Below, one piece after another: positions 14,194-54,091 of a DNA stretch of 64,000 nucleotides; position 1 is the stretch's first letter, and each line of letters begins with the position of its first letter. The notes beneath the pieces were generated by a model that saw nothing but the letters and a program-made list of their open reading frames with translations, had not been told where the DNA came from and did not search any database. Made by a program: the position numbers and the translations under genes. Where the stretch lies: NCBI GenBank assembly GCA_963662655.2, contig CAXXTU010000002.1, positions 160,001-224,000 on the forward strand, read 5' to 3'. Source of the DNA: Candidatus Cloacimonadales bacterium (lineage in GTDB: Bacteria > Cloacimonadota > Cloacimonadia > Cloacimonadales > JAIOQZ01).

Positions 14194-14418
14194 TTCTTTC
14201 CTCGTACGTTCAATTGATTTGATTGTCATTATACATACCGATATCTAAATTTGCAAGAAGTATTCCGATTCGGGTTGAATTTTCCTGATTTCGCTGATAA
14301 CAACACGTATCTCGTGAAAGAGAAGTGAAAAGAGATTTCTCTGCGTGATACGCGATGTTCGATAACGGGCAAAATGGCGCGGTGAAGAGACAGAGAAATG
14401 GAGATCGTGCACAGCTCA

Positions 14419-14573
14419 GCGCGGGGGGCGGCGGGTGTGCTTCGCACACAATTCTCTCATGATGTCGGGCATCGTCCGACATCATGAGAGAATCCGGAAG
14501 CCCGTTGTTTTCCCGCACGTATTCCTGATGAATATGTGCGCGATTTTCCGGGCTTCCGCCGCCGCCCCCGCGC
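14419..14573. repeat. Four-way-junction structured element, family J copy A
   Basis: GC-rich closing stem 14419-14434/14559-14573 encloses three hairpins: GTGTGC-TTC-GCACAC, an 18-bp perfect stem 14451-14468/14476-14493, and CGGAAGCCCG...CGGGCTTCCG. Same layout as 24660-24773 in inverted orientation. Confidence 0.75.
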
Positions 14574-14710: not shown

Positions 14711-15439
14711 ATGCAGAAGAGATTGAAGTTGTTCCTTATACGTAAGTTCAAGGGTATTATTTACCGCGTAGAGATACACCGGTTTGTCGGACTTCTCGAG
14801 AAACCGCTTCTAACCATGTCATACTTGATAAAGGCATCGCGCTGGATCGCTGCAAACAAGGATGTTCCGCTCAACGATTTCTATACTCCTGTGAGGGATT
14901 ACAATAAACGCTACAGAGCTTACAAGTATCTGTTCGAAATGGAAAAACTCGATCTCCCTGTCGATTACCTTGAGTTTGGCGTGTTTGGCGGAAAGTCATT
15001 TCAGTGGTGGGCGAGCGCCAACAAGCATCCCGAATCGAGATTCGTTGGCTTCGATACCTTCTCCGGGCTTCCGGAAGACTGGGACATGTTCAAGAAGGGG
15101 GATATGTCCGTCGACGGGAATGTCCCGCAGATGGATGATGCGAGATGCAGCTTCGAAGCTGGGCTCTTTCAAGATACCCTGCCCGGATTTCTGTATAAGT
15201 TCGAACGAAGAAGCAGACTTGTGATCCACATGGATGCCGACCTCTATTCATCGACCCTGTACGTGCTTACCTCTCTGGCTCCAATCTTGAGAAAGGGCGA
15301 TATCATCCTGTTTGACGAATTCAACATTCCACTGCACGAGTTCAGGGCCTTTACGGATTTCGTCGAGTCGTACTACATAAAGACGAAGTTATTGACGGCT
15401 GTCAACAACTACTACCAGGTCAGCATGAAGATCATGTAG
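14711..15439 (+). CDS. TylF/MycF-like class I SAM-dependent methyltransferase
   Basis: 'YLEFGVFGGKS', 'GFDTFSGLPEDW', 'GLFQDTL', 'IHMDADLYSST' and 'ILFDEF'. Start at 14711 preferred because the ORF-track extension runs through the structured element. Confidence 0.85.
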   Translation: MQKRLKLFLIRKFKGIIYRVEIHRFVGLLEKPLLTMSYLIKASRWIAANKDVPLNDFYTPVRDYNKRYRAYKYLFEMEKLDLPVDYLEFGVFGGKSFQWWASANKHPESRFVGFDTFSGLPEDWDMFKKGDMSVDGNVPQMDDARCSFEAGLFQDTLPGFLYKFERRSRLVIHMDADLYSSTLYVLTSLAPILRKGDIILFDEFNIPLHEFRAFTDFVESYYIKTKLLTAVNNYYQVSMKIM

Positions 15440-22241: not shown

Positions 22242-22279
22242 TCATACAACACGTTCAGGAAGACTTGGGGAGGCATACG

Positions 22280-24460
22280 ATGATAAAAATCAATTTGCTA
22301 CTCTTGTTCCTGGTAATTCTACTGAAACTCGGCTCGATCGCCCATCACGTCGATTACCGTGAAGCCGATACCGTCGTTCCCAAGGCGATCGTCGGGGATG
22401 TGATGTTTGCGATGAAGAGCCCTGAAGCTGAATACAAACTCTACGATTTGAGCGATCCCTACAACGTCAAAGAAGCTGGAAGTGTCGAGCATTGCGTTCA
22501 TTTTATCGCAATGGAAGATGATTACCTGGCATTTCTCTGTTGCAGTGACTCCATTTTAATCTACAACATTGAAGATATATACAACCCCTATCTCGATATT
22601 GTTCTTAAGACCAGCATACATGCCTATCATTCCTGGATATCCGGCAAGAACTACAGCCTTGAAATCGACGGGAGTTATCTGTATCTCAACTGGATGTTGG
22701 AGTACGAGGAATGGGGCGAAACGGATGCCTGCGAGGAAATCTGGAATATCAGCAGTCATAGCAATCCTGTAAGTGTATATCACAATGTGGAGTACTGGGG
22801 GGACGGGCTGATCGATAGCATCATCGAGGATGGCCTTGCCTACACGATCAACATCTGGGACGAAAGTCTCAAGATATTCGATGTGACCGAGCCCTTGGAC
22901 TGGAAGGAGATCGGCAAGGCCGAGCTGCCCCGCGATCCGGAGTTTTTCTACAAGCAGGGAGATACCGTACTTGTTTATGACAAGTACGACAACCTCTATA
23001 CGATAGACGTGTCCGATGCGGCCTCTCCAACGATTATCAATGCGGTGAACTTCCCCAGCGGATACAACTTGTTTGTGTGTCACAATGGGCATTACTATCT
23101 GTATGGCAGCAGGATGGGATTTGCTATTCTGGATACGTCCGACATGGGTAATATTTCAATCCTCGCCGAGTTCAGCCTGTATGAGAACTCGACGTTCATG
23201 TTCTTCGTCGATGATTATACGGCAATGGTGCCATGCAAAGACTCCAATCAGTTCATCGATTTCTCTGATCCTGGTTGCGATTTTCTGTGGGACAAATGGA
23301 ATGAATACACGATGTGGCAGTCATACCGCTGTGCATTGCAATATCCTTACTTCTGCGTATTCGAAAAGGGAGGGTTCCATGTTCTGAACGTTTCCGATCC
23401 TGAAGAAATGTATGAGAAAGGGCTTGCCGATTTCGCTGCCGGTAACGTATCGCTCAAGATCGAGATGGCGTATGCGTATTGTACTGGAGGATCGGGTATC
23501 ACGGTGTGCGACATCAAGAAGTCGGGGGGAGTCGGTTTTGTGTCGAGATTCGATATGGCAGGGGGAATAACGGACATCTCTGTTTATAACAGGCACCTTT
23601 ACGCTTTTTGCCATAGCAGGATCAATACGTTCGATCTCGCCAACATTCTGGTTCCGGAAAATCTGGGATGCAATTCAGTGCCATACGGCAATTATCGCAG
23701 TGACGTTTATCAGGGGCACCTGTTCTCATGGGCGGGAGATATTGGAATCACCGTTTTCTCGATTGGCGAGGATTATTTACCCGTCGAGAAGAATCGCATA
23801 TCTGTCGATGCAGTTGTGGAGATTTTGTTCTACGGAGACTACATGTATGCCGTGCGGAACACCGACATTCAAGTCTATAACATCTGCAATGTTTCCAATC
23901 CGGTTTTCGTGACCGCCGTCGAATTCGATCCCATTCACAATGTTACAGCTTGCGCGATCGAGGGCAACGAATTGTATATTTGCGATGCCAATTGGAACCG
24001 GGTACAGACATTCGGTTTGAGCGATCCATCATATCCCGAAATGACGAACGAGCTTTACCTGGATCATCCCATCTATGCGCTTTTCTTCGTCGGCAACGCG
24101 GCGATCATGGATAATGGCTACGGGCTTATCCAGTCGCTGGACCGGACGGCGATATCGACTACGTTTGTACCGCAAATTCCCACGGTCGACCACTTCAAGC
24201 AAAATTACCCCAATCCGTTCAATCCAGAAACGCATATCGAATTCAGTATCAACAAACAAGCACACACCAGTCTGAAGATTTACAACGTCAAAGGCCAACT
24301 GGTTAACACGCTCGTTGATTGTGTCCTTCCGGAGGGTGATTACAACGAGATATGGCGTGGAGTCGATAGCCGGAACAAGCCGGTGTCCTCAGGCGTGTAT
24401 TTCTATCGGATCGAGGCCGGCGGATATCAATCGACCAGAAAAATGCTGCTGATGAAATAA
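22280..24460 (+). CDS. Secreted LVIVD-repeat protein with a FlgD-Ig/T9SS-like C-terminal domain
   Basis: Signal peptide; many 'xIxDVSDP'-type repeats; tail 'QNYPNPFNPET...SGVYFY...KMLLMK'; GGAGG RBS before ATG 22280. Confidence 0.8.
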   Translation: MIKINLLLLFLVILLKLGSIAHHVDYREADTVVPKAIVGDVMFAMKSPEAEYKLYDLSDPYNVKEAGSVEHCVHFIAMEDDYLAFLCCSDSILIYNIEDIYNPYLDIVLKTSIHAYHSWISGKNYSLEIDGSYLYLNWMLEYEEWGETDACEEIWNISSHSNPVSVYHNVEYWGDGLIDSIIEDGLAYTINIWDESLKIFDVTEPLDWKEIGKAELPRDPEFFYKQGDTVLVYDKYDNLYTIDVSDAASPTIINAVNFPSGYNLFVCHNGHYYLYGSRMGFAILDTSDMGNISILAEFSLYENSTFMFFVDDYTAMVPCKDSNQFIDFSDPGCDFLWDKWNEYTMWQSYRCALQYPYFCVFEKGGFHVLNVSDPEEMYEKGLADFAAGNVSLKIEMAYAYCTGGSGITVCDIKKSGGVGFVSRFDMAGGITDISVYNRHLYAFCHSRINTFDLANILVPENLGCNSVPYGNYRSDVYQGHLFSWAGDIGITVFSIGEDYLPVEKNRISVDAVVEILFYGDYMYAVRNTDIQVYNICNVSNPVFVTAVEFDPIHNVTACAIEGNELYICDANWNRVQTFGLSDPSYPEMTNELYLDHPIYALFFVGNAAIMDNGYGLIQSLDRTAISTTFVPQIPTVDHFKQNYPNPFNPETHIEFSINKQAHTSLKIYNVKGQLVNTLVDCVLPEGDYNEIWRGVDSRNKPVSSGVYFYRIEAGGYQSTRKMLLMK

Positions 24461-24461
24461 T

Positions 24462-24627
24462 GATTTTCGGCTTTGGCGAAGCCAAAACGAAACCAAAGCG
24501 TTGTGACTTTGCGAAGTGAAGTCATGTTAGCAGATTTTCGGCTTTGGCGAAGCCAAAACGAAATCTTGCCGGAAGCACGAAGTGCTGGAGTCGGCTTTCA
24601 CGAAGTGAAAACGGAAAAATCTGCTGA
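24462..24627 (+). repeat. Cluster of C-GAA-G triloop hairpins including a 31-bp direct repeat
   Basis: GATTTTCGGCTTTGGCGAAGCCAAAACGAAA at 24462-24492 and 24533-24563; variant TCGGCTTTCACGAAGTGAAAACG at 24591-24613; further hairpins at 24504-24524 and 24574-24586. Confidence 0.85.
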
Positions 24628-24659: not shown

Positions 24660-24773
24660 CGCGGCGGGGCGGCGTGAAGCCCTGTAAGGGCTTCGGCAGT
24701 TTTTGAAATGTTTTCCATCTGAAAACTTTTCAAAAACTGTTAGTGCGCGAAGCGCACACGCCGCCCCGCCGCG
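24660..24773. repeat. Four-way-junction structured element, family J copy B (inverted relative to copy A)
   Basis: Perfect 16-bp stem CGCGGCGGGGCGGCGT/ACGCCGCCCCGCCGCG enclosing GAAGCCCT-GTA-AGGGCTTC, CAGTTTTTGAAA...TTTCAAAAACTG and GTGCGC-GAA-GCGCAC. Confidence 0.8.
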
Positions 24774-24791
24774 CGGGTGTCCTCGGAGCGA

Positions 24792-25370
24792 TCAGCTATA
24801 GTACGGTTCCTCTTTGAGCAAATGGCTCGCGAGTATCTTGAGATACAGGACCGGAGCGAACCACTCGATGCCTTCTGCAGGCTGTAAAACATAGAGTCCA
24901 AACACAAAACCGACAACCACCAGGAAGAATGCCACCGGTCGTTGAAGATAGTGCCGCGTAAAAAGCAGAATCAATGCTGCAATGACCAGATAAGCATACG
25001 CGCTGACGATGAAAATCCAATCGAAGCCCATGAAAACCCACGACATGATGACGATTTGCAGCAGATGCAGCAAAACAACTCCGAGATGTTGCTTGAACCC
25101 CTGCCCTTCGCGATGATACCAGCGTTTCGCGGATGAAGTGGCGTTTGTCAGGACTCCTCCTGCCATGTCAATTGCGATGAGAAAACCGATAAGATATTGC
25201 CACCAGGTCCAGCCCAGATTCCTGCAATATGCCTGGGCTAATATCAAGACACCAAACAATGCTGCCAGACTGAACTGCATGGCGATTTCCGCTTTGGTTG
25301 CTCCGGGTCCGATAAATTTATCCAGACCGTTACGAGGCTCGGGGTAGTTCCAGTCGATTCGAGAACTCAT
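24792..25370 (-). CDS. Hypothetical multi-pass membrane protein
   Basis: 192 aa with about 6 hydrophobic segments, AAGGAG RBS, 'FIGPGAT' and 'NATSSAKRWYH' segments. Function not recognised. Confidence 0.75.
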   Translation of the reverse strand: MSSRIDWNYPEPRNGLDKFIGPGATKAEIAMQFSLAALFGVLILAQAYCRNLGWTWWQYLIGFLIAIDMAGGVLTNATSSAKRWYHREGQGFKQHLGVVLLHLLQIVIMSWVFMGFDWIFIVSAYAYLVIAALILLFTRHYLQRPVAFFLVVVGFVFGLYVLQPAEGIEWFAPVLYLKILASHLLKEEPYYS

Positions 25371-33256: not shown

Positions 33257-33386
33257 ACATTCAACCACCAGGTTTGAAAGAGAGTTATAATGGTTCACTC
33301 CCCTGATAAAGGTAGACGGATGATCTCAATGTCATCCGGACGGGTTTTCTCTATGTAGATGTTTCTCGCTCCAGACTGACTCGGGA

Positions 33387-33511
33387 GGCGTGAGTAGATT
33401 CGTTCGATCTCCCTTTTCAACGTGGTCTTCCACATCATTTCATTACGTTCGATAGTCCTGATGATGTGGTCTTTCACGTTGAAAAGGGAGATCGGGCGAA
33501 GATATCACGCC
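33387..33511 (+). repeat. Dispersed long-hairpin family H, full copy
   Basis: About 50-nt imperfect inverted arms including a perfect 20-bp CGATCTCCCTTTTCAACGTG/CACGTTGAAAAGGGAGATCG; core TTCGTTCGATC/GATCGGGCGAA. Confidence 0.85.
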
Positions 33512-33587
33512 GGTAGATTGGTTCCTGGAACCTGTTCTTACTGGACACTCGGAAGAGCATTCAGAGAAGTTTTCTTCGGATGAGAAG

Positions 33588-53930: not shown

Positions 53931-53948
53931 CATAGTTTATCGTCTATC

Positions 53949-54078
53949 GGCGTGGCATCTTCGCCCGATCCCTCGCTCCATCGTGGATATACCACACCCT
54001 TGCAGGAAAAAGGGGATAAGGTGGCAAGGGTGTGAAACACCACGATTCCGCTGACGATCGAACGAACCTCCTCACACC
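53949..54078 (-). repeat. Dispersed long-hairpin family H, full copy (inverted)
   Basis: Minus strand reads GGTGTG..GGTTCGTTCGATC...CGTGGTGTTTCACACCCTTGC...GCAAGGGTGTGGTATATCCACG...GATCGGGCGAAGATGCCACGCC, colinear with 33387-33511. Confidence 0.85.
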
Positions 54079-54091
54079 TGTTTGCTGAATG

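Follow-up and report, generated by a model that had tools for sequence, protein, structure and literature searches.

The question raised by two intergenic sequences in a 64-kb stretch of DNA (hereafter the window) is what a gene-less element with a common fold and unlike arms may be. The initial annotation described them as two copies of a four-way junction, at 14419-14573 on the forward strand and 24660-24773 on the reverse strand, and suggested either a functional, possibly ribozyme-like RNA or a single-stranded DNA (ssDNA) substrate of a recombinase or nuclease. Both elements were found at these positions with their parts in the order described, and folding of both strands gave a closing stem (P1) and three hairpins (P2 to P4) on either strand, with RNA as well as with DNA parameters. 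The folds of the two copies had z-scores of -12.0 to -14.0, and none of 200 shuffled sequences was equally stable. The copies and their neighbouring genes are composed as follows.

14395..14418, forward strand: copy 1, degenerate 5' frame (outer limit approximate), ending in the TCAG foot at 14416-14419
14419..14434, forward strand: copy 1, 5' strand of the closing stem P1, with one G bulged; G14434 is the branch-point base
14435..14449, forward strand: copy 1, P2, a 6-bp hairpin with a TTC loop, reading GCGAAGC on the reverse strand
14451..14493, forward strand: copy 1, P3, a perfect hairpin of ~18-20 bp with a sequence particular to this copy
14495..14558, forward strand: copy 1, P4 of the long class (64 nt versus the usual 82-99), with the conserved GGAAGCC/GGCTTCC base
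14559..14573, forward strand: copy 1, 3' strand of P1
10423..14229, reverse strand: left neighbour of copy 1, divergent and outside the element, exported peptidase C25 (gingipain-type)
14711..15439, forward strand: right neighbour of copy 1, outside the element, TylF/Methyltransf_24 methyltransferase
24758..24778, reverse strand: copy 2, 5' strand of P1 with its extension; T24758 is the branch-point base
24743..24757, reverse strand: copy 2, P2, a hairpin with a TTC loop, reading GCGAAGC on the forward strand
24697..24739, reverse strand: copy 2, P3, a hairpin of 19 pairs with one A/A mismatch
24676..24694, reverse strand: copy 2, P4 of the short class, 8 bp with a TAC loop
24655..24675, reverse strand: copy 2, 3' strand of P1, in which 'GAGGG' pairs back and extends the stem
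22265..24460, forward strand: neighbour of copy 2, convergent and outside the element, protein with a T9SS-type C-terminal domain
24792..25370, reverse strand: other neighbour of copy 2, outside the element, 192-aa protein without a Pfam family

At the base of the copy 1 stem an unpaired A faces the G of the TCAG foot, and above the base of its P4 there is an internal loop, followed by an upper helix. The genes of the window are those of T9SS-type exported proteins and housekeeping genes.

The genome that holds the window (G000; 3.81 Mb in two contigs, one of them C2) was compared with three congeners (G001, G002 and G003). The window pair, annotated as two copies, proved to be two members of a family of 78 copies in G000 (67 recovered by motif and 11 by hairpin and profile scans), and the only ones in the window. 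Both arms of the closing stem are present in 76 of them and two are truncated. A structural descriptor found 73 matches in the genome and none in the reversed or the complement-only genome, and the top score of the profile scan in the reversed genome was 9.5 bits; the concern that just two copies exist and that controls would match equally well is thus removed.

All copies but one lie between called genes, the exception overlapping merely a spurious 52-aa gene call. Their units are about 95-190 nt long and dispersed, about one copy per 49 kb. According to the gene calls made in the analysis, 22 copies lie between convergent genes, 22 and 13 between co-directional genes in the two orientations, and 21 between divergent genes, against a background of 144, 274, 287 and 265 gaps of at least 150 nt, respectively. 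This spread over all four contexts upholds the earlier argument against a cis-acting riboswitch. Among the alignments listed, the copies sit beyond the promoters and terminators of the neighbouring genes, and there is a borderline association with genes of T9SS-tailed proteins (23/156 neighbours versus 135/1404, p 0.05). Direct repeats of 4-8 nt flanking the elements showed no excess over cross-element controls (for 5-mers, 35 real versus 46 control), although the ends are degenerate and the comparison had no close empty allele to draw on. At C2 ~100890-100940 the closing stem and frame of an element are found with the whole interior absent, which would be either a deletion product or an empty target. 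Of 12 full-length ISL3-like copies, two (C2 2159256 and 2629396) have inserted close to a four-way element, at a distance of 23-28 bases from its 3' end.

The arms could be parsed into a closing stem and three hairpins in 75 of the 76 intact copies. P1 has a median length of 14 bp and its arms match over at least 12 bp in 70/76 copies; the first mismatch below it is A.G in 42/76, and a CAG foot spans its base in 40/76 (TCAG 24, CCAG 13, GCAG 3). The branch-point pair is Watson-Crick in every parsed copy (T-A 39, C-G 22, G-C 8, TT-AA 6) and P2 has 6 bp. Linkers measure 0-3 nt between P2 and P3 (74/75), 0-2 nt between P3 and P4 (71/75) and at most 1 nt between P4 and P1 (74/75). A long P3 is combined with a long P4 in 34 copies and with a short P4 in 32, a short P3 with a long P4 in 9, and no copy has both arms short. 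Outside P1 lies a degenerate frame of ~25-40 nt with an ACTCGAG/TTGCTC-like motif, ACTCGAG being its commonest form, and the single copies of G001 and G003 also carry such a frame. Two details that had been noted for the window pair are present there and do not extend to the family: the trailing GAGGG, which in copy 2 belongs to the closing stem, occurs in 2/76 copies, and the CC linker, one C of which is paired in copy 1, in 16/75.

In 22 aligned copies, P1 and P2 are 97.5% paired with 46 double changes, a result equalled by none of 500 shuffles. The long P3 (median 19 bp) has a median pairwise identity of 45% among 62 copies, with 1382 matched pairs versus 25 isolated mismatches. In 16 close pairs of P3, which are not independent of each other, 21 changes were double-compensated, 13 single and 5 broken. 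Along with the invariably Watson-Crick branch-point pair, these changes bear out the claim that structure is conserved over sequence. They fit selection on both sequence and shape in the core, made up of P1, P2 and the P4 base, and on shape only in the arms.

The arms also vary independently of each other. Similarity in P3 and in long P4 was uncorrelated (Mantel rho 0.05, p 0.155, n 34), P3 types are found with both P4 classes, and copies 2629196 and 2981202 share 91% of P4 and 62% of P3. In 8 copies the CAG foot is at the opposite end, 7 of these lacking it at the usual end, which fits an inversion of the core inside its frame. Capture of arms from elsewhere in the genome was dropped as an explanation, the 9 matches outside elements being at the same level as the 8 in the reversed control.

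The loop of P2 is a GNA on the reverse strand in 57/78 copies and on the forward strand in 5/78. One-base variants of the TTC loop have the middle base altered in 28 cases and an outer base in 3, as would be predicted if a sheared G.A pair closes the loop. Hairpins of GCGNAGC and GCGNNAGC are described as very stable in DNA and the corresponding RNA hairpin as much less so, and DNA mini-hairpins of the GCGNAGC type as resistant to nucleases and to SSB (PMC13037366). A GNA mini-hairpin like the GCGAAGC that had been pointed out on the strand opposite to P2 is thus present in most copies, and it points to folded ssDNA. Short P4 has GNA or GNNA loops on one strand or the other (11 and 7 of 31); the loops of P3 are mostly of other types (2 and 3 of 35). 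The strand signals conflict, since the forward strand is the one with YCAG at the 5' foot of the stem and the reverse strand the one with the GNA loop.

Outside G000, single native copies were found in G001 and G003 and none in G002. The core pattern matched 4 of 232 genomes of the phylum, all within the genus. Twenty-two short copies served to build a covariance model (R1), which was applied to the genome and its relatives as had been proposed; it matched 3 of 61 genomes, with 52 matches in G000 and one each in G001 and G002, and missed the long copy of G003. Two loci came from the GTDB collection, and within 2.0 Mb of G001 the profile picked up only the copy already known. Viral contigs gave no match to two patterns, BLAST against phages and plasmids gave short chance matches only, and a metagenome scan gave a single chance match within a gluconokinase-like ORF.

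One site allowed filled and empty states to be compared, as the initial annotation had advised. Upstream of queD (named by eye), G001 and G003 carry an element with differing P3 and P4, and in G000 and G002 the site is empty, with the same conserved promoter blocks on both sides. Two separate insertions would explain this, as would a single old one whose arms were replaced on the spot and which was later lost from some genomes.

The match in G002, a copy of 91% identity, lies on a 38-kb contig, C10. This contig and the G000 assembly have no genes in common, and its identity to G003 is 70-75%, compared with 72-88%, mostly 82-88%, for native G002 contigs. Among 20 G002 contigs, it alone combines 0% G000 coverage with a composition clearly nearer to G000; the starts of contigs C6 and C12 are also nearer in composition to G000 than to G002, yet far from both. 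By its sequence characteristics C10 probably belongs to the G000 species and was mis-binned, and the cross-species transfer that its copy might have suggested was dropped for this reason. The G000 assembly lacks the genes that are syntenic with C10 in G001 (by eye, HisRS, KdsA, RNase HII and flagellar genes), so that it contains a gap even though its completeness is 98.95%.

Nearest-neighbour identity among the G000 copies has a median of 64%, and the sole pair more than 90% identical belongs to a 557-bp segmental duplication beside an ISL3 element; the expansion in this genome is therefore probably old.

The family was compared with known small repeats. Like REP, REPIN and BIME sequences with their RAYT transposases, it consists of extragenic GC-rich palindromes in many copies, lineage-specific, in any orientation and with a tetranucleotide foot on the 5' side (PMC3733652, PMC6006769). 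The REP foot is given as GTAG or GTGG, 0-2 nt 5' of the stem (PMC6006769), whereas the foot here is YCAG, with no GTAG among the 12 commonest. A REP unit is a hairpin of 20-40 nt or a doublet, whereas a closing stem and three hairpins were found in nearly all intact copies of this family, and REPs flank a RAYT gene, whereas none was found in the G000 assembly, which has a gap. The bcr1 repeat of the Bacillus cereus group is similar in size, has a cruciform-like fold with compensatory changes, and is described as patchy in distribution and without a known enzyme (PMC3184786). The same source gives bcr1 5-bp direct repeats, two internal stem-loops and transcription; the present family has no duplication signal, three hairpins, arms of non-conserved sequence and a DNA-type GNA cap. 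MITEs have terminal inverted repeats in common with an autonomous IS, and P1 is unlike the ends of the two multi-copy IS of G000. The family is also not one of the Rfam motifs, including Gut-1 and Acido-Lenti-1 (PMC2864571), and gave no covariance match at gathering scores in the window. No description of the family, or of a closed three-hairpin junction repeat, was found in the main texts of the literature searched, the supplements of which may list it as an unnamed motif. The family is real, undescribed in the literature searched and to be placed with the small palindromic repeats of intergenic DNA; in its working it resembles REP/REPIN and bcr1, and it lacks the features that define either. 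For CGTC repeats, the origin and spread of such small palindromes in the absence of their own transposase is put as an open question (PMC3733652).

An enzyme for the family was sought in the G000 assembly, with its gap, and among the genes next to the copies. The profiles PF01797, NF047646, PF02371 and PF04986 had no match in this assembly (the PF04986 result is weak, as its profile matched nothing in the control either), and no RAYT/Y1, IS110 or IS91 was found in it. None of 15 Y1 loci of relatives has the element core, and the RAYT genes of the congeners are flanked by ordinary REPs, not by the four-way element. RAYT genes with REPs lie upstream of the same gene in the three congeners (G001:C1:60548-60877, G002:C8:54604-54930 and G003:C4:1187719-1188036), and at this site G000 has a four-way copy (C2:1455712). 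The coincidence was discounted as a lead to the enzyme: there is no sequence link, and the copies fill 78 of the ~970 gaps of at least 150 nt in G000. Among the 156 neighbouring proteins, the 114 of up to 620 aa were of housekeeping or surface type by eye, and an all-against-all comparison of the whole set found T9SS-tailed and other common families only; no recombinase or nuclease like a candidate enzyme was seen among them.

PF00589 had 6 matches in G000, all of them XerC, XerD, prophage integrases or fragments by eye, with one XerC gene adjoining a copy. The only reverse transcriptase gene (C2 980.9-982.6 kb) is of low GC, Abi/retron-like by eye and interrupted by an internal TGA stop. No four-way copy lies beside it, and it was dropped as the enzyme of the family, as were IS110 and IS91 for want of a match. 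A four-helix-bundle gene was set aside since other repeats flank it, and so were GIY-YIG genes, which are flanked by a different repeat. Long inverted-repeat hairpins from yet another repeat family lie on both sides of the small GIY-YIG genes of G001 and G000, the G000 gene having an internal stop. G003 has a 94-aa GIY-YIG ORF, in two copies, within apparent 23S rRNA, as an intervening sequence or intron. The element could also have been the end of a known IS; the ends of the multi-copy IS of G000 (ISL3-like and IS3-like by eye) are unlike P1, and no copy encloses a gene. A CRISPR array of 16 repeats lies near C2 2317.7-2318.6 kb, and the best match of its 15 spacers to the element is 12 nt.

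On this analysis we favour, with modest confidence, a gene-less repeat that would have spread selfishly by means of a trans-acting enzyme, HUH/Y1-like, recognising the folded ssDNA junction. An HUH-type enzyme is the best guess because of the analogy with REP and RAYT, for which a tetranucleotide foot and an ssDNA fold are described (PMC6006769, PMC3733652). The conserved core, as delimited above, would be the protein-binding site, and the GNA cap would hold P2 folded within ssDNA. Fold-back templated repair may keep the arms perfectly paired, and patch recombination may swap or flip them between copies. The enzyme that drove the old expansion in G000 would since have been lost or would lie within the assembly gap. 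The 78 natural variants separate what is fixed (branch-point pair, 6-bp GNA-capped arm, arm-length classes and YCAG foot) from what is free (the letters of the arms), and they are suited to pull-down and cleavage assays for a protein recognising ssDNA folded as a four-way junction. Several results speak against this reading: no candidate enzyme was found in the assembly, the strand signals disagree, long P4 folds slightly better on the strand opposite to the GNA loop, and the copies show no very recent burst. Should neither an enzyme nor a function emerge, the family would be one more lineage-specific repeat.

It is unlikely that the elements are Holliday-junction-mimic mobile DNA, an undescribed class in several phyla, which an enzyme or host junction proteins would copy, rebuilding the arms and reshuffling blocks; as part of the same joint proposal, and equally unlikely, a single strand would fold into an immobile four-way junction with fixed arm lengths, its arms arising by templated fold-back.

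Gene order around the copies bears on a further alternative, in which the element would be a folded-ssDNA recombination site resembling attC, or a fragile site, that shuffles gene blocks and swaps arms as a by-product. Gene order was compared with the first 2.0 of the 3.9 Mb of G001, single-gene cases being scored as broken in tests and controls. The genes flanking a copy are still adjacent in G001 in 2 of 40 anchored cases, where 8.2-10.7 were expected with stratification by orientation (z -2.6 to -3.3), and at least three blocks that are unbroken in G001 have a copy at each of their ends in G000. The attC sites of integrons and the DUF1874 motif likewise conserve structure over sequence and are proposed to act as folded ssDNA, attC being structure-specific with little sequence conservation (PMC5737381). 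However, a second repeat family, made up of long hairpins, shows the same deficit (7/62 versus 14-18 expected), so that the deficit is not specific to the four-way element and may only mark tolerated transcription-unit boundaries. The gaps that hold elements account for 38 of 390 broken adjacencies. Plain crossing-over within the junction would break the match between the P1 arms, which is kept in the great majority of copies. No integron-like integrase (by eye) was found among the PF00589 matches in G000 and no cassette array was seen; the attC and DUF1874 motifs are described in consecutive intergenic regions (PMC5737381), whereas the copies of this family are dispersed. Starts of the TAAC/TTAC type follow P2 in 19/75 copies, and no matching GTT core closes the stem by eye. 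The consensus core sites of integron attC read RYYYAAC...GTTRRRY. We regard a recombination site as rather improbable. If the link with breaks in gene order holds in close strains, the element would also drive genome rearrangement.

Marginally less probable again is that the forward strand acts as RNA, whether in the form of an ncRNA with a defined structure, in a ribozyme-like fold or as the intermediate of a non-autonomous retroelement with a GNA-capped cDNA. Long P4 prefers the forward strand: G.T exceeds A.C there by 19 to 7 (p 0.03 in a strand-neutral count of copies that are not independent), and its folding energy is better on that strand in 31/43 copies as RNA, and in 32/43 as DNA. Purine mismatches exceed pyrimidine ones by 17 to 6, an excess that is partly an artefact of the folding model. 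The repeat closest in structure, bcr1, is transcribed (PMC3184786), and a cycle from RNA to cDNA would reconcile the two strand signals. Against this, Rfam gave no match at gathering scores in the window, leaving the element outside its families, and at relaxed thresholds gave sub-threshold matches of miRNA-type hairpins on 20 copies and none on 3 further loci. The copies have no orientation preference with respect to flanking transcription (co-directional 22 versus 13, with 21 divergent), and the long P4 arm is missing in 32/75 of them. The conserved bases are all paired within helices and the junction linkers vary in length; the ribozyme or ncRNA gene suggested by the initial annotation thus found no support. 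The sole reverse transcriptase gene of G000, moreover, is the interrupted one described above, away from any copy.

A structure used by the host was also considered, that is, a primase or replication-restart signal resembling ssi sites or the G4 origin, or a chromosome-organising site, maintained by selection and not by selfish spread. The complementary-strand origin of phage G4 and ssiA have mini-hairpin caps, three hairpins and short matches in common with the family (PMC13037366 and NC_001420), and SSB-resistant GNA/GNNA mini-hairpins are reported at G4, ssiA and N4 sites (PMC13037366). The stem GGACGGCG/CGCCGTCC of the G4 origin is the P1 variant of 12/76 copies; before it stands ACTCGAG, which is also the most frequent motif of the frame, and after it CTG, which is how the YCAG foot reads 3' of the stem on the GNA strand. 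We hold this reading to be the least probable of all, as the copies show no replication-strand bias (37:38 on C2, judged by skew; 35:26 for the GNA strand), the congeners live with none or one, the G4 origin is single-copy and without a closing stem, whereas the family has no replication polarity, and the G4 match was noticed post hoc, with different spacing and motifs not all on one strand. Coincidence is the likelier reading of these short matches, which serve as a lead only.

Some other non-coding sequences were encountered. At C2 ~2900690-2900800 a block of ~110 nt is near-identical between G000 and G001 and ends in a terminator; it forms a long bulged hairpin, 6S-like by eye, and had no Rfam match at E 0.01. 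The second repeat family, whose long hairpins are unrelated to the four-way element, has two copies in the window, at 33385-33517 on the reverse strand and at 53943-54080 on the forward strand. It has 105 anchors in G000 and is oriented with replication in 72/101 cases on C2. A third repeat family, with GNA mini-hairpin caps, forms a cluster adjoining copy 2, at 24462-24616 on the forward strand. It comprises 18 matches at 9 loci. One of the loci, at C2 772.3-772.6 kb, is a 53-bp tandem array, and two of the matches are inserted within copies of the second family.
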